Assembly: GCA_018238625.1 (NCBI GenBank)
Contig: JABCSY010000078.1
Coordinates: forward strand, 1 to 18,991
Source: Promethearchaeota archaeon
GTDB taxonomy: Archaea; Asgardarchaeota; Lokiarchaeia; Sigyniarchaeales; SOKP01
Length of the DNA stretch: 18,991 bases
Direction: 5' to 3'
Below the pieces are notes generated by a model, which ran no database searches, was not told the origin of the DNA, and was given only the letters and a program-made list of their open reading frames with translations. The first letter of the stretch is position 1; each line of letters opens with the position of its first letter. Position numbers and translations under genes: made by a program. Of the stretch, positions 3,661 to 18,991 are shown one piece after another.

Positions 3661-3965
3661 TCTATGATTTATTGATTTAAAAAAAAAATTTTGTTGTTAA
3701 AATAGAAATAGTAAGAACATAAATATATAATTTCAGAGAGAAAATTTTTCCTAAAAAAGTTTAAGTTTTAAATTATTCGTTTTTGAAAAGACTATCAGCT
3801 ATTTTAACATAATCTGGAACAAAATGAGTCTTCAATAAATTAGAATTTTCCGTTGAAAATAAATTCCTAATTTTCACTTCAAAACATAATATCGAAATGA
3901 GAAATAGCAAATTATAAATTAATACATTGTTATGGAAATTATGTATATTTTATAGGTTAATTATT

Positions 3966-5044
3966 ATGATTCTTCAAAATGGCTCTAATCAATTTTATCT
4001 AACGAGTCTAATAATGAATATCATTAATATAGTTTTATTTTTGCTATTTATTGTATTTGTATTTAAAGGACATCAACGTCGGCGGAAGGCACCCTATATT
4101 AGTCTTGCAATTCTTTTTGGATTGATTGGAAATTCTTTAGCAAGTATACCTCTAAAATCTAATATAACATTATTTCTTGGAGTTCTTCTTGTAAGTATAT
4201 CATTCTTTTTTATATTTCTCCATTATGAAATGATCTCAAGAGAGAAAGCTAATATTCTTGTTTGTGGTTTCCTAATAGGTTTGAATATAACCATTTTTTC
4301 TCTAATTATAATATATTTAATCTACAATTTGAATAGCTATTCGATATATTATACAATAAAATTCCTCTGTTCATTATGCGGGATAACAGCAATGATTCGT
4401 TCAATTGTTATAATTTATAGAGTACATCATTTAGCTAAAATCATTGCTACAAAACTAGAATTATATGCTGTAACATTTTTATTTACTTATCGATTTGTAT
4501 TTCTAATAAGGGATGTTTTTGTAATATTTGAAGATTTATTAACATATATTGGTTTAATACCTTTAATTATTGGAATTTTAATTCTTTTATTGAATTACAT
4601 TATTCATCCTGACTACATTTATCTGCTTCCATTTCCAATTCATAGTTTTATGCTTTATAATGAAAGTGGTTTATTGATGTATAGTAAACGCGTGCATATC
4701 GAAGCATTTAAAGAAAATTTTCAAGGAATTTTAATAACCGGTGTATTTACTGCCATATCAGCCCTTATTCAAGAAACGCTGGGAACAGGAGCAAAATTAA
4801 AACAAATTAACGCTGAGCAATACCAAATCTATTTTATTAATTTACCAAGAAAAAAGGAACTTTAGCCATAATATCCCTTGGATCGACGCATTTTTTTAAA
4901 AAATCTTTAAATCGATTTGCACAGGCGATTCCAGAGACTTTACTTGAGAAAATGAATACTATAGGGATAAATACAAAAAAAATTGAACCTGAAATTGATT
5001 TAATACTAAACAATTCATTTCCTTATGTCAATTTGAATAATTAA
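3966..5044 (+). CDS. Seven-TM membrane protein fused to a C-terminal longin-like domain, split by a -1 frameshift at about 4850-4856
   Basis: Seven hydrophobic segments, then FMLYNESGLLMYSK...LITGVFTAISALIQETLG. Frame 0 stops at 4863-4865. The -1 frame continues KGTLAIISLGSTHFFKKSLNRFAQAIPETLLEKMNTIGINTKKIEPEIDLILNNSFPYVNLNN to TAA at 5042-5044. ATG 3966 is preferred over TTG 3927. Confidence 0.7.
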
Positions 5045-5173
5045 TAGTTATGCTGGTAAGATATAGCCGTATAAGGAAAGGATATCGAAATACAAAAACA
5101 GAAACTCAAAATTTTCATCTTTTAAATTGCAGTTTTTAAAAAGTATTAAACTCATGCTTAATATATACCATTA

Positions 5174-6619
5174 ATGACGCCATCTAAAACTTTTAACTTA
5201 AACGTTAAAGATATTTCATTTATTAACAATATTCAATCAATGGCAGTTGTAGGTCCTTCAAAGAAACGAAACTTCTTTTTCCTTAGGAATCACCAAGAAA
5301 ACTTTAAGGGAGAACTCTATGTTGTCCACCCCAAAGTCAAAGAAATCCCTAATTTTCCCTCAGAAAACATTTATTCTTCTATTAAAGATATTCCTGGAAA
5401 AGTTGATTTTGCTTTTATTACAGTGCCCGCGTTGCAAGTATTAAATGTCATCGACGATTGCGTGCAGAAAGGTGTTAAATTAGTCACTATATTTACAGCA
5501 GAGTTTTCCGATGCAGGAACTGAAAAGGGTCATCGCTTAGAGAGGGAATTGATAAAACGCGCTCAAAATAAAGTAAGAATTCTTGGACCCAATGGCATGG
5601 GGATATTTTACCCAAAATTAGGAATAGCTTGGCGTTCAAAATTCCCAACGACTCCTGGAAATATCGGGTTTATAGGTCAATCAGGAGGAGTATGTAATAT
5701 TGCTATTTATACTGCGAAAGAAATGGGCATTCATTTTTCCAAAGTATTCTCATTTGGGAACGGAGCAGATTTAGACTTCATAGATATTTTACATTTTTTA
5801 AGCAACGACGATGAAACTGACTTGATTTTGTGTTACTTAGAAGGTATTAAAGAAAATCGAGGAGATGACTTAAGACAAGTTCTTGCTGATAGCAAAAAAC
5901 CGATCGTAGTTTTAAAAGGTGGAAAATCCGAAAGTGGGGCGCAAGCAGTTAAAACTCACACAGCGTCTCTCTCGGGTAATACTCAAATTTGGAACACTAT
6001 TTTCAAACAACACAATCTTATTGAAGTTGAAACGCTAGAACAATTGATGCATACTGCGCGGTTAATAGACTTCTACGGCATTAATGAATTACAAAATATT
6101 GCTGTTTTCAGTTTAAGTGGCGGTTATGGGGTTATCTTAGTTGATCTAATTGAAAAATTCAGAATGAATGTACCACAATTTAGCCCTAAAATTCAAGAAC
6201 AATTGGATAAAAAATTCGTTATTCGTGGTACAAGTTCTAAAAACCCTTTAGATGTAGCAGCGCAACTATTTTACAGTCAAAGCATTAAGGAAATAATCGA
6301 TCTTGCTTTATCCGACGAAATAATCGACGCTCTAATCATGGACCTTCCAAGCTGGTATTTTGATCCCGAGTATTCCATAACCTCAGCTGAGAACTTTGAA
6401 GTTGATATGCTTGAGGCTTTTAATTTAGGACATAAACACAATAAACCATTAATTCCAATTTTAGAGAGTGCTCACCGTCCAGATCAAAGTGATCGCATTT
6501 CAAGGGTATTAGCAAAAAAGAAAGTACCTGTATTTGGAAATCCTCTTGAATTCATTCCTTTATTACCAAAAATTACTAACTATAAGAGAAAATTAAAAAA
6601 TAAAAAAAAAATTTATTAA
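5174..6619 (+). CDS. acdA: ADP-forming acetate/acyl-CoA ligase alpha subunit (CoA-binding protein)
   Basis: CoA-binding Rossmann start MAVVGPS; RILGPNGMG; GQSGG; SFGNGADL; YLEG; LKGGKS; phospho-His motif KTHTASLSG; SGGYG; NPLD. No ATP-grasp beta subunit is present in the window. Confidence 0.88.
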   Translation: MTPSKTFNLNVKDISFINNIQSMAVVGPSKKRNFFFLRNHQENFKGELYVVHPKVKEIPNFPSENIYSSIKDIPGKVDFAFITVPALQVLNVIDDCVQKGVKLVTIFTAEFSDAGTEKGHRLERELIKRAQNKVRILGPNGMGIFYPKLGIAWRSKFPTTPGNIGFIGQSGGVCNIAIYTAKEMGIHFSKVFSFGNGADLDFIDILHFLSNDDETDLILCYLEGIKENRGDDLRQVLADSKKPIVVLKGGKSESGAQAVKTHTASLSGNTQIWNTIFKQHNLIEVETLEQLMHTARLIDFYGINELQNIAVFSLSGGYGVILVDLIEKFRMNVPQFSPKIQEQLDKKFVIRGTSSKNPLDVAAQLFYSQSIKEIIDLALSDEIIDALIMDLPSWYFDPEYSITSAENFEVDMLEAFNLGHKHNKPLIPILESAHRPDQSDRISRVLAKKKVPVFGNPLEFIPLLPKITNYKRKLKNKKKIY

Positions 6620-6636
6620 AATTTTAAAAATTACAA

Positions 6637-8907
6637 TTATCTAAATAATAATCGATAGCGCCAATATTTGTTAAGAGCAAGTGCTTCGAAAGAATATGAT
6701 GTTTTGAATGTGTGTTCATATCCTGGTTGGTTAGCAACCACAAATATACTTATGGTCTCAAAAATAGGTTTAATACCAATTAGAAATAGCTCTTCACTTC
6801 CTTCTTCGGTATCATCATCGAGATCCATTGAAAATACATCGTAATAACTCTCCCCTCTAGTATTCATAATATTGATAAAGCTTGCCTCAAAATCATTATA
6901 AGCAAACTCATCGTTTCTATGCCATCCAGTATTCACAGTCCAAGTAGGATCAGCTTCTTCAACATCGTAGATATAACTAAGTTCGGGTATTTCAATGTCG
7001 TCAACATACCATCCTGAGCCAAGCACATATCCATCACTCCAGTATGTAAAGAATAAAGTTATATTTTTGCCCGCGAAAGGTGTAAGATCCATTACTTCTG
7101 TGTACATACCACCACTATCGCCTGTAAATGCGTTCCATCTTTCTGCAGCAAAGTAAGTTAATGGTTCTACATCATCTGGACAATTGGGATTGTTATTATC
7201 TTCGGCATTAGGAAGAGTTGAGGTAGTCTTAGTTCCTGGAAGTGTATACCATTCACCAGTATCAGTATCATAAACTTCTACATACCCGTAATCCCAATCT
7301 GCCTCTATTGAAAAAGAGTTCCAGAATGTCAATGATGCTCCCGTTTCAGGTATACTAAAGTTATGACCCAGTCTAAACCATGACCAAGCTTCTCCACCTG
7401 AGTACCAATTATAAACACCATTTGGTAAAGCGCCACAGAAATCATCGCCGTCAAAAGCAAAGTCCACTAATACTATTCCATTCATGCTGAATTCTACATA
7501 GTTCACTACATAGGAGTAAAAATCACCATAAGGATAAGGAGCTCCAAAAGTGGGATATTTTCCTACCAAAAAGTCAAAATCTTGTTTATATGCAGAGTCC
7601 CAATAAGCCATAGAAGATTGTATACTCTCACCTCCTGAATCAGCAGAAGGAATATCTAACTCGTAATAACCATAAATTCCGTCCTCCGCAATATCTACAT
7701 TATCCAAGTAGTTAGCGATTGCCCAATCTTGGAATATGTCATCGAATGTTTTATCAGTACGCCCTTCAAGTACATTATTCCAGCCCTTTATTCCATTGTC
7801 CTCATCATGAACAAGATCCCATATCAACCCTTTTTCTCCTTCATTAGGTTCTCCTCCATAATGTTCATACATATAGTATGTCCACAGGAACGATGCTCCG
7901 TAGTCAGCTAAATAACCTTCCCAAATTGTCAATGGGGTATCCCAGAACCACATAAGATATTCTGATATATGTCCTGGTGAGAAACCATATCCACAAAGCC
8001 ATTCAGCCAAAGTTGCACAGCCTTCATCTACCCATGAAAATTCGTCAGGATCTACGTCATAATGGACGAGGTGTTGAAATTCATGAGCAAATGTACCTTC
8101 GTATTGGTTTGGTAAAGGTGTGTAATCTTGGTAAGGGTATGGAAGTATTGGGTCATCTCCAAGACGTCTCCACCACTGATATGTATCCATATGGAATATG
8201 TTTGCATCATTGGTGTTACTAATAAAAGACCAGAAGTAGCCCATTATAAACCAAGGGGCAGTCTCAGGATCAAAGAAGAGTCCATCACGAATGTTGAATA
8301 TTAAAATCTGAGTCTTATTATCTTCTAGAGGACCTGGGCGAACAGCATATTCACCGAAGTTGGAAACAACAGTGTCGTGTATACCGTTTTCCTGATCAAA
8401 TTCTTCCATAATGTATTCTAGATCCTCATAAGTTATCCAATCATGATATTCCGGCTGTAAATAGTACCCTTGTGACAGGTCGGCATAATCGTTTGGTATA
8501 CCTTCAGCTGTCCATGGGTAAGCAAAATACCAAACATCTCCCGGACCATATCCATTATTATCATCATTATAATAATAATCTTGGTAACCACCATCCCACA
8601 CATCGGAAGCCAATCCAATCCAGATGTTAGCTCTATCACCTTCTAAGACACACTCGAAATCTTGATAATATGTTGTCATGTTATAATCATCAGAAACAGA
8701 TACTGTCCATGTGTTTCCTGTATCAATATCTAATCCCTCGTATGTTTTACCTTTAAGGTTTGGTGTGCCACTTACGCCCTCTAAATCCCATATTTCATTA
8801 TAGTCTGGAGCTTCTTTAATATCTGCTCTGATATATAACATCATCGAAAAGCTACCAATGGTTAAGAAAGCGAAGACAATTAATATTGTAAATAGTTTTT
8901 TTCTCAT
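6637..8907 (-). CDS. Secreted zinc metalloprotease, immune inhibitor A (M6)/M30-like, with a C-terminal beta-sandwich domain
   Basis: Signal/anchor MRKKLFTILIVFAFLTIG; zinc motif FAHEFQHLVH followed by WVDEGCA; InhA-like C-terminal FWNSFSIEADWDYGYVEV and FTYWSDG...GWYVDDI. ATG at 8907; the ORF track uses GTG at 8916. Confidence 0.8.
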   Translation of the reverse strand: MRKKLFTILIVFAFLTIGSFSMMLYIRADIKEAPDYNEIWDLEGVSGTPNLKGKTYEGLDIDTGNTWTVSVSDDYNMTTYYQDFECVLEGDRANIWIGLASDVWDGGYQDYYYNDDNNGYGPGDVWYFAYPWTAEGIPNDYADLSQGYYLQPEYHDWITYEDLEYIMEEFDQENGIHDTVVSNFGEYAVRPGPLEDNKTQILIFNIRDGLFFDPETAPWFIMGYFWSFISNTNDANIFHMDTYQWWRRLGDDPILPYPYQDYTPLPNQYEGTFAHEFQHLVHYDVDPDEFSWVDEGCATLAEWLCGYGFSPGHISEYLMWFWDTPLTIWEGYLADYGASFLWTYYMYEHYGGEPNEGEKGLIWDLVHDEDNGIKGWNNVLEGRTDKTFDDIFQDWAIANYLDNVDIAEDGIYGYYELDIPSADSGGESIQSSMAYWDSAYKQDFDFLVGKYPTFGAPYPYGDFYSYVVNYVEFSMNGIVLVDFAFDGDDFCGALPNGVYNWYSGGEAWSWFRLGHNFSIPETGASLTFWNSFSIEADWDYGYVEVYDTDTGEWYTLPGTKTTSTLPNAEDNNNPNCPDDVEPLTYFAAERWNAFTGDSGGMYTEVMDLTPFAGKNITLFFTYWSDGYVLGSGWYVDDIEIPELSYIYDVEEADPTWTVNTGWHRNDEFAYNDFEASFINIMNTRGESYYDVFSMDLDDDTEEGSEELFLIGIKPIFETISIFVVANQPGYEHTFKTSYSFEALALNKYWRYRLLFR

Positions 8908-9004
8908 TTTTATCACGTAAAGTTATGTGTTATTAAACCTAAAATAATAAAGATAAAAAGAAATCGGGTATAATTTTCCCCATTTGACATTTTTGTAAAA
9001 GATA

Positions 9005-9256
9005 GTGACGGCTTCAAATTTCTCTAACTTAAATGTATAAGATCTTTCCTTCATTACCGATATCGAATTAATGGCAGTTATTGGTCCGTCAAAAAAGCGA
9101 AATTATTTTTTCCTTTTTAACCATCAAGAGAATTTTAAGGGGATTCTATATGCTGTCCATCCCACAGTTAAAGAGATACCGAATTTTCCTAAAGAAAATA
9201 TAATTTCTTCAATTAAAGACCTTCCAAGTTGGTATTTTGATCCCGAATATTCTATA
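9005..9256 (+). pseudogene. Internally deleted remnant of an acdA paralog
   Basis: Reads MTASNFSNLNV*DLSFITDIELMAVIGPSKKR...SSIKD, matching the acdA N-terminus (42/50 aa identical from MAV to IKD), with a premature TAA at 9038-9040. It then jumps directly to LPSWYFDPEYSI (acdA about 6341-6379). Confidence 0.92.
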
Positions 9257-10933
9257 CTAAAATATTTGGGGACTCTTATATTCGCCAAAAACTTCTCTTA
9301 AAACGCTACAAATTTCTTCTATTGTAGCATAGGTTTTAACTACTTCAATCATGATTGGCATAATATTCTTAGAAGATTCAGCCACCTTTTTTAATTCAGC
9401 TAGTTTTGTTTCAACTAAGGTCTGGTCTCGATTTTTTTTTAATTCGCCGAGAGATGATATAATTTTTTGTTCCTCGTCAGTATCGTGTTTAAAGGTACTT
9501 ATTTTACTCTCTTCTTCTGTACAATAAGTGTTTACTCCAATTACTTGATTAATTCCCGCTTCTATTTTCTTCTGTTCGCTGTATGCATTATTTTGGATTT
9601 CCCGTTGAATGAAACCGCTCTCAATGGCAGTAGATATCCCTCCCATTGTGTCAATTTTTTCAATATACTCTAAAGCTTTTTCTTCTAATTTTGATGTTAA
9701 GTATTCTATATAATAAGAACCCCCTAATGGGTCCACAACGTCGGTAACTCCCGATTCATGCGCAAGGACTTGTTGAGTTCTTAAGGACAATCTCACAGAG
9801 TCTTCTGTTGGAATTGCTAAAGCCTCGTCTGCACCGCAGGTGTGTAGCGATTGCGTCCCCCCTAAAATTGCTGCTAACGCTTGAAGGGTTACTCGGACAA
9901 TATTTACGTTAGGTTGTTGAGCCGTTAGCGTGACTCCCGCAGTTTGGGTATGGAAGCGTAATCTCATTGAATTTGGGTCCTTAGCGTGGAACCTATCTTT
10001 CATTATTTTTGCCCATAATTTTCTAACTGCCCTTAATTTAGCAATTTCTTCAAAAAAATTATTATGAGTTGTAAAAAAGAAAGATAATCTTGGGGCAAAT
10101 TCATCAATTTTACCTCCCCGACTAAGAACTTCTTCAACATACGCAATACCATCTGCTATCGTAAAGGCGATTTCTTGAATAGCGTTACATCCCGCTTCTC
10201 GCATGTGGTACCCGCTAATGCTGATAGTATTAAAACGGGGTAAATTTTTGGAGCAATATTCGATTACATCTGCTACTAATCTTAATGATGGTTTAGGAGG
10301 ATAAATATATGTACCCCTCGCAACATATTCTTTTAAGATATCGTTTTGTACCGTACCGATTAATTGTTTAGGTTTTATTCCTTGTTTCTCGCCTACAACG
10401 ATATACATTGCTAAAAGCACTGAAGTAGGAGCGTTAATAGTCATACTTGTTGAAACCTTATCTAGAGGAATCCCTTCGAACACTTGTTCAAAATCTCTCA
10501 AGGAGTTAACCGTTACACCAACCCTTCCTACTTCTCCTAAACAGATTTTATTGTCACTATTATAGCCCATCTGTGTTGGCAAATCAAACGCAATTGAAAG
10601 CCCTTTTTGGCCTTGTGATATTAAATATTTGAACCTTTCGTTTGTTTTAGAAGCATCTGCAAAACCACCATATTGTCTCATCGTCCAAATTCTTCCACGA
10701 TACATGTTTGGATACACGCCTCTCGTAAAGGGGGGATTTCCCGGAAATCCAAGGTCTTCTAAATAATCAATATTCTTAAGATCACCGGGTCCATAGACGT
10801 GTTTTAAAGGTATGTTTGAAGGTGTTTCGAAAGTCTCTCTTCTTTCTCCTCGTTCGATATATTTATTCAAAACCTTTTCTTCCCATTCTTTTCGTTCTTG
10901 TTCAACTTTTTCCAGTTCTTCATTAGAGAACAT
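9257..10933 (-). CDS. mcmA1: Methylmalonyl-CoA mutase, large (substrate-binding) subunit
   Basis: Motifs PFTRGVYPNMYRGRIWTMRQYGGF, AFDLPTQMG, QNDILKEYVARGTY, SISGYHMREAG, GGTQSLHT, DPLGGSYYIE. The Tyr in RQY and the Arg in ARG fit methylmalonyl-CoA specificity. No B12-binding domain is fused. Confidence 0.95.
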   Translation of the reverse strand: MFSNEELEKVEQERKEWEEKVLNKYIERGERRETFETPSNIPLKHVYGPGDLKNIDYLEDLGFPGNPPFTRGVYPNMYRGRIWTMRQYGGFADASKTNERFKYLISQGQKGLSIAFDLPTQMGYNSDNKICLGEVGRVGVTVNSLRDFEQVFEGIPLDKVSTSMTINAPTSVLLAMYIVVGEKQGIKPKQLIGTVQNDILKEYVARGTYIYPPKPSLRLVADVIEYCSKNLPRFNTISISGYHMREAGCNAIQEIAFTIADGIAYVEEVLSRGGKIDEFAPRLSFFFTTHNNFFEEIAKLRAVRKLWAKIMKDRFHAKDPNSMRLRFHTQTAGVTLTAQQPNVNIVRVTLQALAAILGGTQSLHTCGADEALAIPTEDSVRLSLRTQQVLAHESGVTDVVDPLGGSYYIEYLTSKLEEKALEYIEKIDTMGGISTAIESGFIQREIQNNAYSEQKKIEAGINQVIGVNTYCTEEESKISTFKHDTDEEQKIISSLGELKKNRDQTLVETKLAELKKVAESSKNIMPIMIEVVKTYATIEEICSVLREVFGEYKSPQIF

Positions 10934-10943
10934 ATTTTCTATT

Positions 10944-10950
10944 ACCTCTT
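10944..10950 (-). promoter_or_regulatory. Shine-Dalgarno-like AAGAGGT upstream of the mutase
   Basis: Minus strand reads aagaggt-aatagaaaat-ATG, a 10-nt spacing. Confidence 0.5.
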
Positions 10951-10960
10951 AATTAGGTTA

Positions 10961-11068
10961 CTAAATTGATTCGAAAGCGTAATCAAATACTTCCTTATTA
11001 TTTAAATTATCACAAATTTTTCTATAAATGGGCTTTAATTTTTGCCCATGACCTTCTAGTTGTCCTAA
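10961..11068 (-). pseudogene. 3' remnant of a DUF35 OB-fold gene paralog
   Basis: Translates [35 protein letters not shown]; the last 26 aa match the 12593-12946 gene at 22 positions. Confidence 0.9.
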
Positions 11069-11112
11069 ATTTTGCTATTTCTTCAAAAAAATTATTATGA
11101 GTTGTAAAAAAA
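11065..11112 (-). pseudogene. Short internal fragment of a methylmalonyl-CoA mutase gene
   Basis: 11077-11111 is identical to 10044-10078 (35 bp). It translates [16 protein letters not shown] versus [16 protein letters not shown] in the intact gene. Confidence 0.85.
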
Positions 11113-11198
11113 TGAATATTCAAAATAATTTGTTTCATTGTATTATATTATAAAACAATTAGAGAAATAAAAGTAATTTAATTAAAAACCTTCTAAAA

Positions 11199-11609
11199 TT
11201 AAATATTATCTAAAAAGCTTTGGACTCTTTTTTCTACAGATTTATTTACTACTTTAATAAAATCGGTGAATTTACTAATTTCTCCATCCCAATTATTCGA
11301 TATATCAGATCCATACAATTCAAAAAATTGTTTTGAAATAATATCTAACTCGTTTAATATAAATTTTTTCTTAAATTTAGGTGAAGAAGTCGCAATGAAT
11401 AACATTTTATTTTTTTTTAGGATATCAAAACGCATATTATTCAATTCGAAGTTTGAAATCCCCGTTGCAGAAATTTCCATTGCAAATGAATTCAAAGCAC
11501 TCATAAGCATCGCAAAAAGCTGAACTTTTAAATCTTGGTCGTAAATACGTGAAAAAACTGCTGTTCCGTCCTCAGTTAAAATCCATAAATCGCGTATCAC
11601 TTTAGTCAA
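11199..11609 (-). CDS. Stand-alone longin-like domain protein
   Basis: 136 aa with a longin-like pattern: IRDLWILTEDGTAVFSR (two strands), QLFAMLMSALNSFAMEI (helix), three strands, then ILNELDIISKQFFELY and FTDFIKVVNK helices. TTG or GTG start. Confidence 0.7.
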   Translation of the reverse strand: MTKVIRDLWILTEDGTAVFSRIYDQDLKVQLFAMLMSALNSFAMEISATGISNFELNNMRFDILKKNKMLFIATSSPKFKKKFILNELDIISKQFFELYGSDISNNWDGEISKFTDFIKVVNKSVEKRVQSFLDNI

Positions 11610-11727
11610 GTATATCCATCTGAAATTTCTAGTTTTAAATATATCTTCAGAATATAATAATGGATCTTAAATATTAAATTAATTCTAAATTCAAGGTTTA
11701 ACAATAAAAAAAAAATTAATTCGTTAA

Positions 11728-12468
11728 TTATGGGTTTTTTGGTTTTAAAAAGCGATTTTTCATCCATTCAGGAAAAATAAAACCATAATAGAAGAAAACT
11801 GAGCTGAAAAACAACATTGTTCTACCCAGAATTAAGAATAAAATATTAAATGTGCTTAAGACATCAAAAATTGCCCCAATGAAGAATAACCAAAAAGCCA
11901 TAAGAAGTAACTTTCCTTTCAATTTATGCTCTGGATTGTCAGATTTTAGAGAGGCTCGAGCAAATATTGTTCCCGTTATTATTAAAACAATTAAAAGCAA
12001 AATTTGAAAGACAGAAATGAATAGTCCGTAATTTGCGTCAACAGGCGACTCCAATGTCCCAATTATCGATGGATTCGTTAGGAGGAAATAAAATAAAAAT
12101 ATTTCGAATAAAATACCTCCTATAGTAGAGATCATTATAATAATCCTTTGTTTTTGTTTATACATAAGTTCTGTGAATGCAATTAACCAAAATGTTAAAG
12201 TAAATGGAAGTAAAGAAGTTCCAATAATAAAGTATATCTCAGGAAATGAAATGAGTCCTAAACCATCGTTAAAGAGAGCAATAATAAATGAGGTCGAACT
12301 AGGATACCAAGATTCCCCAATCAAAATCCAACAAAGCCCAACAAATAAATAAGTTTTCTCCTTAATTTTACGATATCTTAGAGCAATTCGCAGACCTACA
12401 AATATGAAAATTATTACTAAAATAACACTAAAAATTCCATTTACATAATCAAAAGCTTCTAACGCCAT
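11728..12468 (-). CDS. Seven-TM membrane protein, putative sensor, with no cytoplasmic output domain
   Basis: Seven hydrophobic segments with basic loops (RYRKIKEK, KSDNPEHKLKGK) and terminal YGFIFPEWMK. Resembles HisKA_7TM-type sensor modules by pattern only. Confidence 0.65.
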   Translation of the reverse strand: MALEAFDYVNGIFSVILVIIFIFVGLRIALRYRKIKEKTYLFVGLCWILIGESWYPSSTSFIIALFNDGLGLISFPEIYFIIGTSLLPFTLTFWLIAFTELMYKQKQRIIIMISTIGGILFEIFLFYFLLTNPSIIGTLESPVDANYGLFISVFQILLLIVLIITGTIFARASLKSDNPEHKLKGKLLLMAFWLFFIGAIFDVLSTFNILFLILGRTMLFFSSVFFYYGFIFPEWMKNRFLKPKNP

Positions 12469-12592
12469 ACCATATCTTCTCTGTTTAATTAATTAAAAAA
12501 AAATTAATTATAATATAAAAGAACTTATATTTAACAGTGAAGATTAAAAAAATTTGTCAGAAATTGCATACGAACAAACTTTTTTTATTAGT

Positions 12593-12946
12593 CTAAATTG
12601 GTTCGAAAGCGTAATCATATACTTCCTTACCATCTAAATTATCACAAATTTTTCTATATATGGGCTTTAATTTCATCCCAACTTTTAAACGATCTTGGGG
12701 GGTAATTTGTCCCAGAGCTTTAATTCCGTTTTCAAACTCAACAACTCCAAGCGCATAAGAAGGTTTATTGCGAAACTCAGCGGGAGGCGCTTTTAAGATC
12801 GTAAAGGTTAATAATTCAGCGTTTCCAACTGCAATAATCGTTTCAAATTTGTCGTGTTTACATTTTAAACATCTAAGATGCGATGGATGCTGTAAAAATC
12901 CACAATTATTACATTTTTTCCATTCTATTTTTTCTTTCTTATTCAT
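12593..12946 (-). CDS. DUF35 / ChsH2-like Zn-ribbon plus OB-fold protein (thiolase-associated family)
   Basis: CNNCG...RCLKC zinc ribbon, then LLTFTILKAPPAEFRNKPSYALGVVEFENGIKALGQI...LKVGMKLKP and terminal YAFEP. Confidence 0.88.
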   Translation of the reverse strand: MNKKEKIEWKKCNNCGFLQHPSHLRCLKCKHDKFETIIAVGNAELLTFTILKAPPAEFRNKPSYALGVVEFENGIKALGQITPQDRLKVGMKLKPIYRKICDNLDGKEVYDYAFEPI

Positions 12947-13177
12947 TCATTTCTCACTTCTTCTTCTAAAACATCTAAAACAAATTTAAAAAAATGAAAA
13001 TTGTGATTATTATTTTAAATATTCATTTTTCTCGTGATATATCATCTTAGAGAAATATAAGAAAAGAAATAAAATAATCTTTTCAACAATATAAGTCATA
13101 ATAAAGCCCCAAACTAAGTAAATATTTTTAAATGTTTTCGCATTATTATATTACGAAAAAGGAGTTATTTAGCAAGC

Positions 13178-13549
13178 ATGAGCAAATTTGAAAATCATAA
13201 AAAATTGTATTTGAATTTTAAAGGAGATGCTGAGAATGAGGATGTTTCATTCCCTTCTAGAGCAGAATTATACTTTCTTTCGATATATCATTTAATTGAA
13301 AGCTGTGCAGCAAAATATCGGATACATATCAACAAACATCAAAAAGTAAGGATAACCTTAGAAAATAATCCCCACATCTTTGAAAAAGAAACGGAAAACA
13401 TTTGGCGATTATTTCAAGATATTGAAAATAAAATTCGCCCAAAATTTACTTATGGGTTTAGTTGGACGGATAAAGATTTTAATGAATTGAAGGAAAAATA
13501 TTATAAATTAGAAGAAATATGCATTAAGGTGTTGACAGATGAGTCTTAA
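13178..13549 (+). CDS. HEPN-domain protein (putative toxin of a HEPN-MNT pair)
   Basis: 123-aa all-helical protein: AELYFLSIYHLIES, a KH motif, RPKFTYG. It overlaps the nucleotidyltransferase gene by 11 bp. GGAG is present upstream at 13161-13164. Confidence 0.65.
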   Translation: MSKFENHKKLYLNFKGDAENEDVSFPSRAELYFLSIYHLIESCAAKYRIHINKHQKVRITLENNPHIFEKETENIWRLFQDIENKIRPKFTYGFSWTDKDFNELKEKYYKLEEICIKVLTDES

Positions 13550-14231
13550 TATGAATTTAGAAAAAAGTCAGATGAAAAATTTAAGAAAAGATCCAAAACT
13601 GGAAAAAAAAATAAATCAAATTAAGACTTTTATAGGCAATTATCTCTCAAAATATGAAGAGATTGAAAATATCATATTATTTGGCTCTTTAGCTTCTGGA
13701 AGATTTAATGAAAATAGTGATATTGATATATGTATTTTATTTAAGCCCAATACTCCAAAAAGTATGGAAACAACTATTTTTGACCATTTCTTAAACCTAG
13801 GAAAGTTATTAAATCGTTCCATTCAATGCATTTTCTTTTTTCCAGAGGATATTAATAATTGGGACACAAATTTTCTTGAAAATATTTTGGCTGAAGGACA
13901 ATTATTAACTGGAAATTCTAATTACTTTAAAACTTTAATAAAAGCTTTAGAATTTAAACCATATCAAATTATAACTTTAAATCTAAGAGCATTAAATAGT
14001 TCTGCTAAAATGAAACTAAAAAGAATATTATATGGATATAAAACTAGCAAGAAATATTCAGAAAAAATATATAGATATCAAAAAAGAGGGTTGGTGAAAA
14101 AATTACAGGGAATAAAATTAGGACGGGGATCATTCATTATACCTGAAAAATTCTTGTTACTTGTCGAAACCAAGTTAAAAGAATTTGATATTACATTTTC
14201 AAACTTTAGAGTATGGATGCAAGAAATATAA
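13539..14231 (+). CDS. Minimal nucleotidyltransferase (Pol-beta superfamily) with a basic C-terminal domain
   Basis: IILFGSLASGRFNENSDIDICILF is the GS...DxD signature; FLENILAEG closes the MNT domain; a further Lys/Arg-rich domain of about 90 aa follows. Confidence 0.88.
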   Translation: MSLNMNLEKSQMKNLRKDPKLEKKINQIKTFIGNYLSKYEEIENIILFGSLASGRFNENSDIDICILFKPNTPKSMETTIFDHFLNLGKLLNRSIQCIFFFPEDINNWDTNFLENILAEGQLLTGNSNYFKTLIKALEFKPYQIITLNLRALNSSAKMKLKRILYGYKTSKKYSEKIYRYQKRGLVKKLQGIKLGRGSFIIPEKFLLLVETKLKEFDITFSNFRVWMQEI

Positions 14232-14312
14232 TTAAAATCAGTTGAATTAAAAATTCTACTTTTATTTGTTTTTCACAAATTTGTTTAAAAAACAAATTTT
14301 TAAAAAAAATTT

Positions 14313-14344
14313 AATAACTCCTTGTCCTATTTTTGAAGATGTTA
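14313..14344 (-). pseudogene. 32-bp remnant of a small GTPase gene (G5 region)
   Basis: aataactccttgtcctatttttgaagatgtta matches 16383-16414 at 30/32 positions; TSSKIGQGVI versus TSAKTGQGVI. Confidence 0.75.
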
Positions 14345-14354
14345 TAAAAATGTT

Positions 14355-16310
14355 CTATTTAATATTTTTTTTTATAAATATTTCTGTTATCAATGATTTG
14401 AGTATTGGAACATCTTCAAGTTTGATTATCCGGTTGGTTTGACAATATTTATTAAACTTTTCTAATAAATCTTCATTGTTTTTTATATTTTCAACAAAAT
14501 TTTGTATTTTTTTTTGAGCAGAAAAAGAATGTCCCTTGAATAAATAACAAACCAAAAATGTTGAAATTCGCTTCATAAGTAAGGTATATTGACCAAAAGT
14601 TGCACGATCGAGCCCCTCAGAAAAGAGTTCACCACTAAATGTGTTAAAAGTAGCTAAAAAACTGCTAATGAGATTTTCTTCGATATCCAATGTTTTTGTA
14701 AATAATTTGGAGAATGTGGAAAGCCCTCCTTCTGAAATAACTAAAATCATAACAGGGTTTTCTTCAATTATCTCGGGAACTTCACTTCTACGTTTTTGGA
14801 TCATATATGTCATCTGTTCGTTCAGGTTAGTTAACTTAAAACGCTCAGATAAAGAGGATTCTGAATCCTTTAATTTCTCCCATATACTTAACTTCTGAAG
14901 TAATTCATCGTGTTCAATGGAAATTTTGGCAGCTATTCGATGCATCCCATGCTTTTCAGCTATTCTTTGGGCTTGAGTAAATAGTCGTCTAGCTCCTTTG
15001 AGATCTAATGTTAATAATGATAGTTTAGCTTGTAACACGTAACTTTCAGCTAAAAACCAATACGATCTTAATTTTACTGCGATTTCTAATAATTTATTAA
15101 TAAGGGGTTGTATCTCATCAATTATTTCGATACTATTAGTCATATGTAACTCTTCCAGTAATAACTCACTTTGGTTTAATAAAGCAATTATAATATGTTC
15201 ATTTGTTATCATCTCTCCATCTATAATTTGCTTTAAAAGTTCTTGAGCTTTTACTCGATTATGAATTCTCGGACTCGATTTTAGAACCAGAGCTTTAGAA
15301 ATAAAGTAAGATTGTTCAATCTGTTTGTTATCGTCTTCTTGTTTATAAATCGCCTCCAATTGTTCTAAATACTTCTGAGCTTGCTCAATATCGCCTTTAA
15401 CAACAAAAACCTCTATCAAACTAAAAGTAACTTCACTTAATACCCAATTATTTCTGGTTTTTTTAGCAATTTCAAAACCGCGTTTAAGATAAACTAAGCA
15501 TTGATCTAAATCACCCATTTCCCTATATATATTTCCTGTGTCACTTATAGTAGTAATAATGGGAAGCATGTTAGTCTTTTCTTCAAAAAACGCTAAAATC
15601 TTTTTATAATACATTAATGCTTTTTTTAAATCCCCTTTCATATAAAAGATTACTCCAAGATTCTTAGGAATAAATGAATCCACCCACGGATGATTTATAT
15701 CTATTGCATAAGATTGACATTGTTCTAGCAGCTCTAGAGCGTAATCTAGATCATCTTTAAAATAAGTATAATATCCACTGATTAAACTGTAAGATTCAAC
15801 AATTTCATGTTTTATACCAAGTTTTTGGCGCAATTTTAAGCTTCTTTTCGCACAATCTAATCCTTTTTCTACATTAGCTAGAAACCAATAACCACTCGCT
15901 TTAATATAAAGAATATTTGCCTCTTTCCTTTCAAGTTCTAATGTTGAAATGTTGGTTAGAGTTTTAAGAATATTCTCACTCCTTAAAGTTAATTCGAATG
16001 CTTTTTCAAAATCTCCTAACCATAGCAATGCCCAAGCCATATTTAGAAGAGCATCAATTGAATAAAGATCAAGTCCTAATTCCTGACTTTCCTGATAAGC
16101 TTTTTCAGCATACTTAAAGCACTCCTCATCATCTCTAAATCTAAAAAAAACAGAACTCTTTATAAGATCATGTGTAAGTCTGTCTAAATCTGTTAAATCC
16201 TCTTTTTTATCAATTTTATTCAATAATGAAAGAACTTCTTCAAATTTTCCTTCCTCAAATAAGTATTTTGCTTGAATTGTTTCCTTAGATTCCGAAGGTG
16301 ACATAGCCAA
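14355..16310 (-). CDS. TPR-repeat protein with a C-terminal longin-like domain (paralog 1)
   Basis: Multiple roughly 40-aa TPR-like units (NLGVIFYMKGDLKKALMYY, DTGNIYREMGDLDQCLVYL). The C-terminus reads ILVISEGGLSTFSK...LISSFLATFNTFSGELFS. Start is TTG 16310 or ATG 16304. Confidence 0.85.
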   Translation of the reverse strand: MAMSPSESKETIQAKYLFEEGKFEEVLSLLNKIDKKEDLTDLDRLTHDLIKSSVFFRFRDDEECFKYAEKAYQESQELGLDLYSIDALLNMAWALLWLGDFEKAFELTLRSENILKTLTNISTLELERKEANILYIKASGYWFLANVEKGLDCAKRSLKLRQKLGIKHEIVESYSLISGYYTYFKDDLDYALELLEQCQSYAIDINHPWVDSFIPKNLGVIFYMKGDLKKALMYYKKILAFFEEKTNMLPIITTISDTGNIYREMGDLDQCLVYLKRGFEIAKKTRNNWVLSEVTFSLIEVFVVKGDIEQAQKYLEQLEAIYKQEDDNKQIEQSYFISKALVLKSSPRIHNRVKAQELLKQIIDGEMITNEHIIIALLNQSELLLEELHMTNSIEIIDEIQPLINKLLEIAVKLRSYWFLAESYVLQAKLSLLTLDLKGARRLFTQAQRIAEKHGMHRIAAKISIEHDELLQKLSIWEKLKDSESSLSERFKLTNLNEQMTYMIQKRRSEVPEIIEENPVMILVISEGGLSTFSKLFTKTLDIEENLISSFLATFNTFSGELFSEGLDRATFGQYTLLMKRISTFLVCYLFKGHSFSAQKKIQNFVENIKNNEDLLEKFNKYCQTNRIIKLEDVPILKSLITEIFIKKNIK

Positions 16311-16325
16311 ATTTAAAAAACTATC

Positions 16326-16871
16326 CTAATTTTGGTTTTTACTTTTATTATATAATTCATTAATAATAGCATTAAATGCTTCAATAACTCCTTGTCCTGT
16401 TTTTGCAGATGTTAAATATAACTCAAGAAAGTTGTGTTCATTCACAATATTTTGAATTTTATCGGTATCTAAATCATTTTCCTCTACTAAGTCAACTTTA
16501 TTAGCGAAAAGAACTACAGGAATATTCCCACAATTCTTTTTAAGTTCATTATGCCAATTTTCTATATGTTTAAAACTTTCATTGCCTAAATCATTTTCTT
16601 CAAGGCTATATACAATAATACACGCTTTGCTCTCTTTATAGAATAAAGGTTGTAAAAAATTGAAATCATCTTGACCAGAAATATCCCAGAATATTAAATT
16701 AATTACATCTTCATTAATTTTTTTATTAAATCTTGAAAATTGGGCGCCAATAGTTTTGATGTAATCCATCTCAAAAGTTCCTTTGGTGAATTTTTTAATT
16801 AAGGATGTTTTACCAACTGCTCCATCGCCAAGAACGCATATTTTGAATACAAATTCCTCAGAATTAGTCAT
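16326..16871 (-). CDS. Rab-like small GTPase (Ras superfamily)
   Basis: G1 GDGAVGKTS, G2 TIG, G3 WDISGQ, G4 NKVD, G5 TSAK. No C-terminal Cys prenylation motif. Confidence 0.95.
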   Translation of the reverse strand: MTNSEEFVFKICVLGDGAVGKTSLIKKFTKGTFEMDYIKTIGAQFSRFNKKINEDVINLIFWDISGQDDFNFLQPLFYKESKACIIVYSLEENDLGNESFKHIENWHNELKKNCGNIPVVLFANKVDLVEENDLDTDKIQNIVNEHNFLELYLTSAKTGQGVIEAFNAIINELYNKSKNQN

Positions 16872-16990
16872 TGATTTCTTAAATACTTTTTAGATTATAT
16901 TATCTATATAATCTAAAATTAGACATTATCAAATATAAAACTATAACTAATTGAATAGTCTAAAAAAATATAATTTCTTTAATTTAGAAA

Positions 16991-18991
16991 TTAAAACGCC
17001 TTTAGTACAATATTTTTCTTTACAAATATATCTATTATTAAAGATTCCAGTAAAGGAATTTCTTTTATGTGAATAGTTTTGTTTATCTTATAACTCTTCA
17101 TCAGATTCTGCCAGATAGACTCTTCTTTCTGTATGTGATCAATAAAATAATTTATTTTCTGAAGAGCATAGTAGGAATCGCCCTTAAATATGTATGTGAC
17201 AAAAAAAGGTGGAATAGATTTCACAAGTAGTGTATATTCGCCAAATTTAGCTCGATCGAACCTTTCAGAAAACATCTCTCGAATAAAATAATCCATCGTG
17301 GTTAAAAAGCCACTAAAGAGGTGAGACTCGAACGCTTTTTCTTTAATAAATGAATGGGAGAAAAGAGAAGTACCACCTTCGGTTACGATTAAAATTGTAA
17401 AAGGTTCTTCTTCTGATATCTCAAGATCTTCTATCCCACCTTTTAAAAGCATATTTTCAATCTGTTCGTTAAGTTTGGCTAATTGAATACGCTTACTCAA
17501 AACTTCTTTTGATTCTTTAAGATTTTCCCATATGTTTAATTTCTGAAGTAATTCATCGTGTTCAATGGAAATTTTGGCAGCTAATCGATGCATTCCTTGT
17601 TTTTCAGCTATTTTTTGGGCTTGAGTTAATAATCGTCTTGCATCTTCTAAATCTAAAGTTAATAATGCTAGTTTTGCTTGTAACACGTAAGTTTCGGCTA
17701 AAATCCAAAATGAATTTGCTTTTTCAGCAATGTCTAATAATTGAGTAATTAAGTTTTCTAACTCGTTAAGCACTTCGATTTCATTAGTAAGATGTAATTC
17801 ATCCAGTAAGAGTTCACACAGGTTTAACAAGGCATTTGTAGTTATGTCAACATGAACCATCTCTTCTTGAATGATTTGTTTGAATATTTCTTCTGCTTTT
17901 GCCCGATTGTGAATCCGTGGGCTTGTTTTCAGTATTATGGCTTTACTAAAGCGATAGATTAAATCAATTGTTTTATTATCTTCTTTATCATTTATCTCTT
18001 CTAACTGCTCCAAATATCTCTGAGCACGTTCAATATTAGCCTTATAAACAAGAACTTCTATTATATTTGATATCATGAAACTTATTATCCAATTATTTCC
18101 CACTTCCTTTGAAATCATTAAACTACGCTCAAGATATGTTAAAGCTTTATCAAAATCACCTTGGTTCACGAACATAGAGGCAAGATTACTAAGATTTGAT
18201 GTGATTATTTGTTTATTGCTTGTTTTTTCAGCAATTACAAGGGACTGTTCGGTATACTTAATGCTTTTTTTAATTTCCCCTTTCAAACCGTAAATAATCC
18301 CAAGGCTTTGGAGATTCAATGATATGATACGTTGTTGGTTTATTTCCTTAGCGAGAGTTTGACATCGTTCTGCGTACATGAGAGCCCGATCTAAATCGCT
18401 TTTCATCATAGAATAAATAAATCCCATCCCATAAAGAGATTCGGCAAGCTCCTGCTTGTTCCCTATATTCTCACGCAATTCTAAGCTTCTTTTTACACAC
18501 TTTAGCGCTAAATTTACATTACCTTGAAATGAATAAATGGCTCCTTTAGTAAAGGCTATGGAAGCTTCTCTTTGTTCTTGTTCCAAGGGCGTACATCGAG
18601 TAAGAGTTTTAAGCAAATCTTCGCTTTGCTTAATTAAATTAAGAGCTTTTTCAAAATCCCCCATCCACATCGTTGCGTAAGCCATTCTCACAAGAGAATC
18701 AATTGATCGGAGATTATCCTTCAACTCCTGACTTTTTTGATAGGCTTTTTCGGTGAACTTAAGAACTTCTTCATAATTTGCCAATTCGGTTAAGCATTCA
18801 CTTATAAGGAGATAATGCGAGAGTTGGTCCGAATCCGTTATGTCGTCCCTTCCTTCCAGATTATTCATAAGTAATAAAGCTTCATCATATTTACTTTCTT
18901 TCATTAGCTGTTCTGCTTGCTTTAATTCTTTAGATTTTACACTGGGGCTCTGATTTTTTTTACTTTTTGGAAGATTTTTTCTCTCCTTTTT
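16991..18991 (-). CDS. TPR-repeat protein with a C-terminal longin-like domain (paralog 2), probably 5'-truncated by the window edge
   Basis: Colinear homolog of 14355-16310. The frame stays open from ATG 18904 to the window end (KKERKNLPKSKKNQSPSVKSKELKQAEQL), and SKELKQAEQL aligns with SKETIQAKYL of paralog 1, so the start likely lies upstream. Confidence 0.85.
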   Translation of the reverse strand, partial: KKERKNLPKSKKNQSPSVKSKELKQAEQLMKESKYDEALLLMNNLEGRDDITDSDQLSHYLLISECLTELANYEEVLKFTEKAYQKSQELKDNLRSIDSLVRMAYATMWMGDFEKALNLIKQSEDLLKTLTRCTPLEQEQREASIAFTKGAIYSFQGNVNLALKCVKRSLELRENIGNKQELAESLYGMGFIYSMMKSDLDRALMYAERCQTLAKEINQQRIISLNLQSLGIIYGLKGEIKKSIKYTEQSLVIAEKTSNKQIITSNLSNLASMFVNQGDFDKALTYLERSLMISKEVGNNWIISFMISNIIEVLVYKANIERAQRYLEQLEEINDKEDNKTIDLIYRFSKAIILKTSPRIHNRAKAEEIFKQIIQEEMVHVDITTNALLNLCELLLDELHLTNEIEVLNELENLITQLLDIAEKANSFWILAETYVLQAKLALLTLDLEDARRLLTQAQKIAEKQGMHRLAAKISIEHDELLQKLNIWENLKESKEVLSKRIQLAKLNEQIENMLLKGGIEDLEISEEEPFTILIVTEGGTSLFSHSFIKEKAFESHLFSGFLTTMDYFIREMFSERFDRAKFGEYTLLVKSIPPFFVTYIFKGDSYYALQKINYFIDHIQKEESIWQNLMKSYKINKTIHIKEIPLLESLIIDIFVKKNIVLKAF

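Follow-up and report, generated by a model that had tools for sequence, protein, structure and literature searches.

A conserved Asgard operon, in which genes for tetratricopeptide repeat (TPR) proteins with a C-terminal longin-like domain adjoin the gene of a Rab-like small GTPase, is found at positions 14355-18991 of contig JABCSY010000078.1 (C33) of a Promethearchaeota archaeon. The entire contig of 18,991 bases was analyzed and is referred to here as the window; it belongs to a genome of 4.29 Mb in 201 contigs (completeness 97.9%, contamination 7.6%). Longin-like domains occur at two further places in the window, namely, fused to a seven-transmembrane (7TM) protein and as a stand-alone protein encoded beside a multi-pass transmembrane (TM) protein. 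A preliminary description of this DNA had joined all these genes into a single 7TM/TPR-longin-GTPase signalling system. According to our best explanation, which as a whole has about an even chance of being correct, the window instead comprises three loci that are independent of each other but have in common one paralogous domain with a longin fold, of the Mon1/Fuzzy/sybindin type, and the TPR-longin proteins regulate or bind the adjacent GTPase, as guanine nucleotide exchange factors (GEFs) if family resemblance is a guide. The genes between the longin loci include methylmalonyl-CoA-mutase-like, protease, CoA-ligase-like and nucleotidyltransferase genes, some of these labels being a reading of the translations. 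DNA runs containing the contig come from marine and cold-seep sediment metagenomes of 9 studies, and the source names on relatives of its proteins are Promethearchaeota, Lokiarchaeota, Thor-, Odin-, Hermod- and Hodarchaeota.

All eight peptide strings (four motif pairs) that had been quoted as the shared pattern of four proteins were found in the translations of the corresponding genes, and they align in register, with invariant I, E, G and S columns in the first part and L and E in the second. By sequence, the four domains form one paralogous family. A hidden Markov model (HMM) built from them retrieved 18 open reading frames (ORFs) at E<=1e-3 from the 4.29-Mb genome, 4 of which are those of the window, and matched the C-terminal domain of TPR-longin protein 2 at 7.6e-55. 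The stand-alone copy exceeds the cut-off of the Pfam family PF19036, Fuz_longin_1 (E 2.4e-7; 31.4 bits versus a cut-off of 26.1 bits), which represents the first longin domain of FUZ, MON1 and HPS1. Its 81 homologous clusters mostly carry a precomputed Fuz_longin_1 annotation, and all source names given for them are Asgard. The three fused copies are tied to this stand-alone family solely by a profile comparison with hhalign, in which 39 TPR C-terminal domains were aligned to 26 stand-alone longins with a probability of 95.2% (E 2.6e-8, 45 columns).

AlphaFold2 (AF2) models cover two of the four copies, the stand-alone protein and the C-terminal 144 aa of TPR-longin protein 1. The former (mean predicted local distance difference test score, pLDDT, 70.9) has the elements E7-12 E17-21 H25-42 E51-56 E59-66 E69-75 H81-99 and further helices, and the latter (pLDDT 79.7) E7-15 E20-25 H31-54 E58-61 E64-71 E74-81 H84-100 H102-114. 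Both models thus have the topology beta-beta-alpha-beta-beta-beta-alpha-alpha without an N-terminal helix, as is typical of longins. Foldseek matched the stand-alone copy to AP mu/sigma, Sec22b, VAMP7 and Mon1-Ccz1 at E 1.8e-5 to 1e-4, and also to zeta-COP, and gave E 1.7e-4 for the TPR C-terminal domain. Overall, these lists consist mainly of AP mu/sigma, zeta/delta-COP, Sec22b, VAMP7, Mon1-Ccz1, BLOC-3 and sedlin, with a minority of roadblock entries (Ragulator/LAMTOR, EGOC/Ego3, dynein light chain roadblock and a bacterial Roadblock/LC7 domain). VIA-align placed the TPR C-terminal domain among zeta-COP, sigma-adaptins, synbindin, Sec22b, TRAPP Bet5/Trs23 with Ypt1, Fuzzy and BLOC-3 (Z 10.6-13.3, root-mean-square deviation 2.4-3.9 A over 114-131 residues), and longin proteins made up all 50 of the 50 entries listed; the Fuzzy chain of the Rab23-Fuzzy-Inturned complex (9rs9_A) aligned over 131 residues with Z 11.5. 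The longin fold proposed for these domains was thus borne out by the longin-dominated structure searches and the PF19036 match, and the assignment is well supported, for two copies by the predicted fold and for all four by homology. A further member of the genome's longin-like repertoire is a 308-aa protein (G000:C145:3619-4542, locus L110) that combines an N-terminal longin-like domain (HMM E 3.7e-4) with an Arf-like GTPase (Pfam Arf 4.2e-16). This architecture is already known for Asgard archaea from the available parts of earlier reports (PMC10933270; 10.1101/2020.10.19.343400; PMC4917890).

The evidence for a link to GTPases comes from the operon. As had been described, two TPR proteins (14355-16310 and 16991-18904, both on the minus strand) flank the Ras-family GTPase at 16326-16871. 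Tandem TPR repeats exceed the Pfam cut-offs in both, with 71.1 and 84.4 bits for TPR_12 and 76.9 and 53.6 bits for TPR_MalT; the corresponding E values are 2.2e-21 (TPR_MalT) and 8.7e-20 (TPR_12) for TPR-longin protein 2, to which the 649-aa protein P0082 is identical, and 6.4e-24 (TPR_12) for TPR-longin protein 1. The start of the latter's gene is probably a non-ATG codon or lies past the end of the contig, because its frame runs without a stop from the first ATG (18904) to the contig end and the N-terminus of the family consensus aligns upstream of that ATG. In the direction of transcription, TPR-longin 1 is followed by the GTPase after 119 bp and the GTPase by TPR-longin 2 after about 15-21 bp, an order that is a variant also present at loci such as L015 and L044. 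Weak contig joints at 14233->16218 and 14379->17138 (sides of 21-30 letters) were too short to be read as variants that lack TPR-longin 2 or the GTPase.

TPR-longin proteins are abundant in Asgard archaea, with at least 144 clusters at 90% identity. The domain profile retrieved 1104 clusters at 50% identity (E<=1e-3), in which it lies nearly always at the C-terminus of proteins of 560-720 aa, and it was detected at E<=1e-15 in 192 of 400 Asgard-phylum genomes from many families, with up to at least nine copies per genome; G219 and G220, each assembled as a single contig, have 5 matches apiece. The genomic context was inspected for the 68 best-scoring of 297 confirmed stretches in contigs representing one genome per species, the six-frame ORFs of which were scanned with our own HMMs. 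These loci contain 112 TPR-longin genes, of which 40 are followed by a small GTPase on the same strand within 600 bp and 30 by another TPR-longin gene, forming arrays of up to five, whereas 8 end at a contig edge. The order TPR-longin -> GTPase was seen in 39 of the 60 assessable loci. A small GTPase lies downstream of 40 of the 74 informative TPR-longin genes, compared with a background of 29 of 3174 proxy genes (0.9%) from the genome of the window, so that the proximity is well above what the size of the GTPase family would predict. Order and strand are kept across several Asgard families, and TPR-longin, Rab-like GTPase and TPR-longin in the window are a conserved Asgard operon. Within the TPR-longin proteins, conservation peaks in the linker and the longin part, with the motifs KISxEHDELL and FSEGLDRAxFG, and most invariant columns lie past residue 430.

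The GTPase of this operon, one of 74 Pfam Ras matches in the genome, possesses the P-loop GDGAVGKTS, the switch II motif DISGQD, NKVD and SAK. When a profile of its orthologues was compared with the PDB, Rab23 was the best match (6.4e-41), and others were Rab21, a solved Thorarchaeota Rab, Rab35, Rab5 and Rab1; all 60 of the 60 listed matches were Rab/Ypt proteins, in agreement with the Rab-like label given to it previously. A C-terminal cysteine prenylation motif is absent from the window's GTPase (...LYNKSKNQN), and the tails of 34 aligned orthologues contain no Cys. In a maximum-likelihood tree of 111 G domains (41 linked to TPR-longin genes, 25 from elsewhere in the same loci and 45 paralogues of the window's genome), one clade (Shimodaira-Hasegawa approximate likelihood ratio test support 99) contains 37 of the 41 linked GTPases together with that of the window, and none of the 44 other paralogues of the genome. 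Column identity in the orthologue alignment averages 76%, and the window's protein shares 83% identity with its counterpart at locus L026. As judged from its sequences, the operon-linked GTPase is dedicated and slowly evolving. Loci of one subgroup (L018, L034, L035, L037, L038, L043, L056, L057, L059 and also L053) carry a second, very divergent GTPase-like ORF after the Rab-like GTPase; it measures 198-241 aa from stop to stop, matches the HMM at E 1e-13 to 1e-17, forms a long-branch clade of 10 rows in the tree and is not present in the window.

The stand-alone longin gene lies 118 bp downstream of the gene for the 246-aa multi-TM protein, so that the adjacency of the two that had been described was found as such, and the two genes (11199-12468) are a conserved gene pair. 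At E<=1e-10 the stand-alone family was detected in 23 of the 151 genomes searched, exclusively in the window's own taxonomic family (22 of the 25 genomes of family f1), with 1-4 copies each. Of 30 stand-alone-longin loci, 12 have an adjacent multi-TM ORF of 244-253 aa that belongs to one family, upstream and co-directional in 8 cases and divergent in 4, and a thirteenth such locus is cut by a contig end. The multi-TM family has about nine paralogues in the window's genome, only two of which adjoin a longin. A Pfam search with the 246-aa protein gave no family above cut-off, and its nearest Atlas clusters are unnamed and from Promethearchaeota (score 0.97). The pair is bounded by 88-nt direct repeats that are 90% identical, are spaced by 1632 and derive from the 3' end of the neighbouring OB-fold (oligonucleotide/oligosaccharide-binding) gene. 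Contigs from three of four runs (X2, X3 and X9) join across this region and lack exactly the 1632 bases (segment 10961-12592) that hold the gene pair, while the flanks persist. The 7TM and stand-alone longin genes are thus a strain-variable two-gene cassette, gained or lost as a 1632-bp unit. As both genes come and go together, a functional coupling between them is supported. No conclusion was drawn from the uneven depth of the contigs over 3805-5072 and 10779-12680, in line with the advice of the tool. Other paralogue groups of stand-alone longins (L072, L075, L076, L078, L081, L091, L095 and L097; L086, L087, L088, L090 and L098) have conserved neighbours of their own, either single-pass ORFs of ~295 aa and ~110 aa or a single-TM ORF of 107-113 aa and a ~440-aa protein; the stand-alone family is therefore regularly encoded beside membrane proteins.

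The 7TM-longin fusion had been described as one gene at 3966-5044. The fusion family is real and intact alleles exist, but in this DNA there is no single ORF, since the frame from 3966 stops at 4865 (...PRKKEL*) and the remainder of the domain (...GTLAIISLG...NLNN*) continues in the -1 frame. The intact 359-aa protein P0202, identical over the aligned part, reads ...PRKKGTLAII... at this point, and its residues 295-359 match the 3' ORF at E 5e-37 in phmmer. Further relatives are 88-91% identical, intact relatives measure 344-380 aa, and the same-genus genome G317 carries an open copy of the fusion with 99% identity. Among the three runs that cover the A-run, only the X9 contig has an extra A after 4849 (depth 15.2 of 15.2), X1 and X2 being without it, so the frameshift at 4850-4855 reflects a true A6/A7 polymorphism or else an error in the assembly of the homopolymer. 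The full-length fusion occurs in 64 of 400 Asgard genomes with a patchy distribution (25 of 31 in family f5, 13 of 134 in f1 and 1 of 41 in the window's genus). A crude hydropathy scan gave nine overlapping segments, one of them the longin alpha1 helix, which were merged by eye to seven TM helices. K/R-rich loops at 34-44, 86-96 and 152-168 are consistent with an N-out/C-in topology, and the longin domain is therefore predicted to be cytoplasmic. The TM part had no match in Pfam, and neither of the two 7TM parts nor their relatives matched a Pfam 7TM receptor family; Atlas leads to HisKA_7TM (0.87 and 0.77) were below the trust level of the tool and were not used. Homology between the two 7TM parts is not claimed, since BLASTP between the TM part of the fusion and the 246-aa protein revealed no similarity (E 4) and the HMM comparison considered below was without a match.

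Features of the window (positions in the 18,991-base contig)
Feature	Coordinates	Strand	Remarks
7TM-longin fusion gene, 5' part	3966..4865	+	seven predicted TM helices followed by the longin-like domain's beta1-beta2-alpha1; premature stop
A6 homopolymer at the frameshift	4850..4855	+	intact alleles have one extra A
7TM-longin fusion gene, 3' part	4856..5044	+	-1 frame; beta3-beta5 and C-terminal helices; stop 5042-5044
Direct repeat of 88 nt, left copy	10961..11048	.	duplicate of the OB-fold gene 3' end; bounds the 7TM and longin cassette
Stand-alone longin protein, 136 aa	11199..11609	-	Pfam PF19036 Fuz_longin_1; AF2; Foldseek
Multi-pass (6-7 TM) protein, 246 aa, unnamed Asgard-restricted family	11728..12468	-	paired with the stand-alone longin
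Direct repeat of 88 nt, right copy	12593..12680	.	within the OB-fold (ChsH2-like) gene 12593-12946, at its 3' end
TPR-longin protein 2, 649-651 aa	14355..16310	-	TPR solenoid of ~500 aa and C-terminal longin-like domain (DNA 14355-14789)
Rab-like small GTPase, 181 aa	16326..16871	-	Pfam Ras 1.6e-39, 135.5 bits
TPR-longin protein 1, at least 637 aa	16991..18991	-	C-terminal longin-like domain (DNA 16991-17425); frame open to contig end

In our preferred reading, one or more TPR-longin proteins, encoded directly upstream of a dedicated Rab-like GTPase (in the window, a second gene also follows the GTPase), would act on that GTPase. The C-terminal longin domain may dimerise into a platform of the kind on which small GTPases are held by longin and roadblock proteins, and this platform would regulate the neighbouring GTPase, more probably by nucleotide exchange than as a GTPase-activating protein (GAP) if family resemblance is followed. 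The ~500-residue TPR solenoid may bring in partners or inputs, several inputs would be able to act on one switch through tandem arrays of 1-5 TPR-longin paralogues, and the 7TM forms, either fused or consisting of a 7TM protein and a stand-alone longin, may be membrane-anchored longin platforms with the domain on the cytoplasmic side. A GEF-type role is favoured because the sole Pfam leads of the domain family are Fuz_longin_1 (Fuz/Mon1) and Sybindin, the latter weak and seen in relatives (P0209, E 0.059; two 271-aa paralogues), and because the window copies, which read EGGTS, EGGLS, EDGTA and ESGLL, lack the GP motif at the end of the beta1-beta2 loop that marks GAP-type longins according to the accessible part of PMC12290439. 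Several observations weigh against this explanation. The three fused domains, scanned alone, had no match in Pfam, and a PDB sequence search with the TPR C-terminal profile gave nothing significant (best E 0.43). The HMM of the 246-aa 7TM family did not match the TM part of the fusion. Neither a GTPase nor a TPR-longin gene lies downstream of 34 of the 112 TPR-longin genes, so that the link is frequent but not obligatory. TPR proteins can act as effectors of GTPases instead of regulators, and we infer contact between the longin domain and the GTPase purely from analogy. Moreover, the Arg of the FSEGLDRA loop is invariant (39 of 39 family members) and the loop between beta1 and beta2 has the consensus G-G-x-P in 28 of 39 members, never G-P, which brings a GAP mechanism into consideration.

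In that alternative, the longin domain would supply the FSEGLDRA arginine as a finger to a GTPase that keeps its own switch II glutamine. Besides the invariant arginine and the G-G-x-P before beta2, the DxxGQ of the GTPase fits this idea, and longin-domain GAPs with an Arg finger are known, namely, FLCN, NPRL2 and SMCR8 (PMC12290439, in part). However, no copy has a strict GP, as the EGGTS and EGGLS of the window's own copies illustrate, the Pfam leads are to GEF-type longins, and the arginine would, from the strand order of the model, lie where beta3 begins, a long way from the loop between beta1 and beta2; the top structural matches are adaptin, TRAPP and Fuzzy, and the lack of an FLCN, SMCR8 or NPRL2 chain among the matches listed is weak evidence in the same direction. 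We hold a GAP function to be unlikely. Of similar, low probability, although slightly easier to accept, is the possibility that the TPR-longin proteins bind the GTPase in its GTP-bound form through the TPR solenoid, as effectors or scaffolds, the longin domain only dimerising or binding another partner. TPRs are general protein-binding scaffolds, those found here match MalT-like sensor TPRs, several paralogous TPR-longin genes per GTPase fit multiple effectors as well as multiple regulators, and a proposed GEF in Myxococcus has been re-assigned as an effector (PMC13408092, in part). What speaks against it is the conservation peak in the linker and longin domain, as well as the observation that longin/roadblock domains encoded beside a GTPase usually touch it, as in MglB-MglA, TRAPP and Mon1-Ccz1 (compare the available part of PMC10933270). 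A reading in which the genes are neighbours merely through co-regulation or common inheritance, and in which the TPR-longin proteins take part in one process with the GTPase but never touch it, would account for the TPR-longin genes without a downstream GTPase, but it is hard to reconcile with the tight spacing in the window, with the conservation of order and strand across several Asgard families and with the dedicated GTPase clade, and we rate it the least probable of all. In a mirror-tree comparison of 40 pairs, the distances of longin and GTPase were correlated with r 0.74, a value that 0 of 1000 permutations reached; this was not counted for binding, since it is confounded by the shared species phylogeny, from which such correlated divergence of partners is equally expected.

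The single integrated system of the preliminary description, in which 7TM and TPR sensors would use longin domains as an output onto the GTPase at 16326-16871, is nearly as improbable. In its favour, all four domains are paralogous and fall in a stretch of 15 kb, where an even spread of 18 such ORFs over 4.29 Mb would give fewer than three loci, and the prediction for the fusion places its longin domain in the cytoplasm. However, the loci are split by unrelated metabolic genes and are not syntenic elsewhere: of the 68 loci with TPR-longin genes (+-8 kb), 1 has a relative of the 246-aa 7TM gene and none has the fusion. An enrichment of the 7TM forms near GTPase genes was not observed either. 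Within +-6 kb of the fusion, a GTPase is present at 6 of 20 loci, at one of them adjacent, which is about chance (~4 expected from 79 GTPase domains per 4.29 Mb), and none was seen at the 10 loci of the 7TM and longin pair (115 kb in all); both results also count against the preferred reading. In addition, the pair is missing from the contigs of three of the four runs. The neighbourhood support for a receptor-to-GTPase logic is thus confined to the TPR proteins. Because the loci are not syntenic and the 7TM forms are not enriched near GTPases, what the proposed analogy to G protein-coupled receptors (GPCRs) retains is the shared domain family.

Links to characterized systems are apparent, each with its limits. 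The tri-longin Rab GEFs Mon1-Ccz1 (Rab7), Fuzzy-Inturned of CPLANE (Rab23) and HPS1-HPS4 of BLOC-3 also combine a longin platform with a Rab-type GTPase. The stand-alone copy matches Fuz_longin_1, the TPR C-terminal model aligns to Fuzzy, CPLANE and BLOC-3, and the GTPase profile has Rab23 as its best match, the partner of Fuzzy-Inturned. Unlike these GEFs, which have three consecutive longins per chain, each protein described here has a single longin of ~135-145 aa, the rest being TPR, 7TM or nothing; there is no defined heterodimer partner, the GEF role is putative and the GTPase lacks a C-terminal prenylation cysteine. A similar picture holds for the core longins of TRAPP (sybindin/TRAPPC4-Trs23, Bet5 and sedlin), to which the weak Sybindin leads and the structural matches to synbindin (up to Z 12.6) and to Bet5/Trs23 in TRAPP-Ypt1 complexes (Z 11-11.8) point, whereas sequence similarity remains below the Pfam cut-offs, the architecture is different and the window contains no Bet3-type partner gene. 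With the GAP-type longins FLCN, NPRL2 and SMCR8/C9orf72, the family has in common a longin domain as a candidate regulator of small GTPases, but the window copies are without the GP motif. The resemblance to GPCR-heterotrimeric G protein signalling exists in cartoon only, as a 7TM part with a cytoplasmic module of a GTPase-handling family; in contrast to GPCR systems, there is no Pfam 7tm match and no enrichment near GTPase genes, and the GTPase is a small Rab-like protein and not a G-alpha.

Among prokaryotic systems, MglB-MglA likewise has a gene for a roadblock/longin-superfamily regulator immediately upstream of, and co-directional with, that of the GTPase (for MglB, see the accessible part of PMC10933270). 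MglB is a roadblock protein, whereas the domains studied here have the longin topology, with no N-terminal helix and two C-terminal helices; the ~500-aa TPR extension, a Rab-like instead of an MglA-like GTPase and arrays of up to 5 regulator paralogues are further differences. In the portion of Liu et al. that is available (10.1101/2020.10.19.343400), an Asgard operon is described in which a LAMTOR1-like roadblock protein is encoded together with a Rab-like GTPase and a DENN protein, and this operon and the neighbourhood of ESCRT (the endosomal sorting complexes needed for transport) are the only ones named there as examples of conserved operons of eukaryotic signature proteins; fusions of longin to GTPases and NPRL2-like longin fusions are also reported. 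The operon of Liu et al. is, like that of the window, a conserved neighbourhood of a Rab-like GTPase and putative regulators from the roadblock, longin and DENN world, but the partner here is a TPR-longin protein and no DENN or LAMTOR1-like gene was seen in the window. The Vps28-C/adaptin/longin proteins with TPR that appear in the accessible part of the ESCRT paper have a different architecture from the C-terminal-longin TPR family.

Two other regions of the window drew attention. Between the longin loci, two small genes overlap on the plus strand at 13178-14231; the second (13539-14231) encodes a nucleotidyltransferase of the Pol-beta type (Pfam Polbeta 3.1e-14), the first has no Pfam match, and we take the two to resemble a nucleotidyltransferase toxin-antitoxin-type pair. 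A 431-aa membrane peptidase-like ORF (1361-2656, minus strand) contains tandem 8-residue repeats (DENLAISL/DENLVISI...) at its N-terminal end, near 2537-2656, and 48 bases at 2537-2586 are skipped in one X3 contig, which suggests variation in the copy number of these repeats.

Asgard genomes encode dozens of Ras-superfamily GTPases and dozens of longin/roadblock proteins, and which regulator pairs with which GTPase is the question that this operon addresses. Operon analysis of the Loki GTPases was listed as an open question by Dey et al. in 2016 (PMC4917890, in part), and according to the accessible part of Tran et al. 2024 (PMC10933270), a cultured Asgard archaeon generally does not have its small GTPase genes in operons with those for roadblock, longin or TRAPPC3 proteins, so that they are difficult to match. 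The available portions of the literature searched (including 10.64898/2026.10.28.762692 and PMC10936438) contain no description of the C-terminal-longin TPR family, its GTPase operon or the 7TM-longin fusion; an entry in the asCOG table is possible. The operon is easy to overlook because the TPR-longin domain escapes Pfam. A far-reaching interpretation, which we regard as doubtful, is that one specific and highly conserved Rab-like GTPase of Asgard archaea has its cognate exchange factors in the TPR-longin proteins, the two forming the first Asgard regulator-GTPase pair readable from the genome, that these proteins, with a single longin and encoded in an operon, represent a forerunner of the longin Rab-GEF platforms of eukaryotes (TRAPP, Mon1-Ccz1 and Fuzzy-Inturned), and that the 7TM-longin proteins are membrane receptors that recruit small GTPases via the same platform.

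The valuable part of the observation is the conserved TPR-longin/Rab-like GTPase operon, the biochemical role of which is putative. It provides a defined and conserved pair, consisting of one orthologous Rab-like GTPase and the neighbouring longin-bearing proteins, for binding, GEF/GAP and structural work. The fused 7TM-longin protein and the split 7TM/longin pair may represent the same platform tethered to membranes, and the operon itself bears on the origin of longin-based Rab regulation in eukaryotes.

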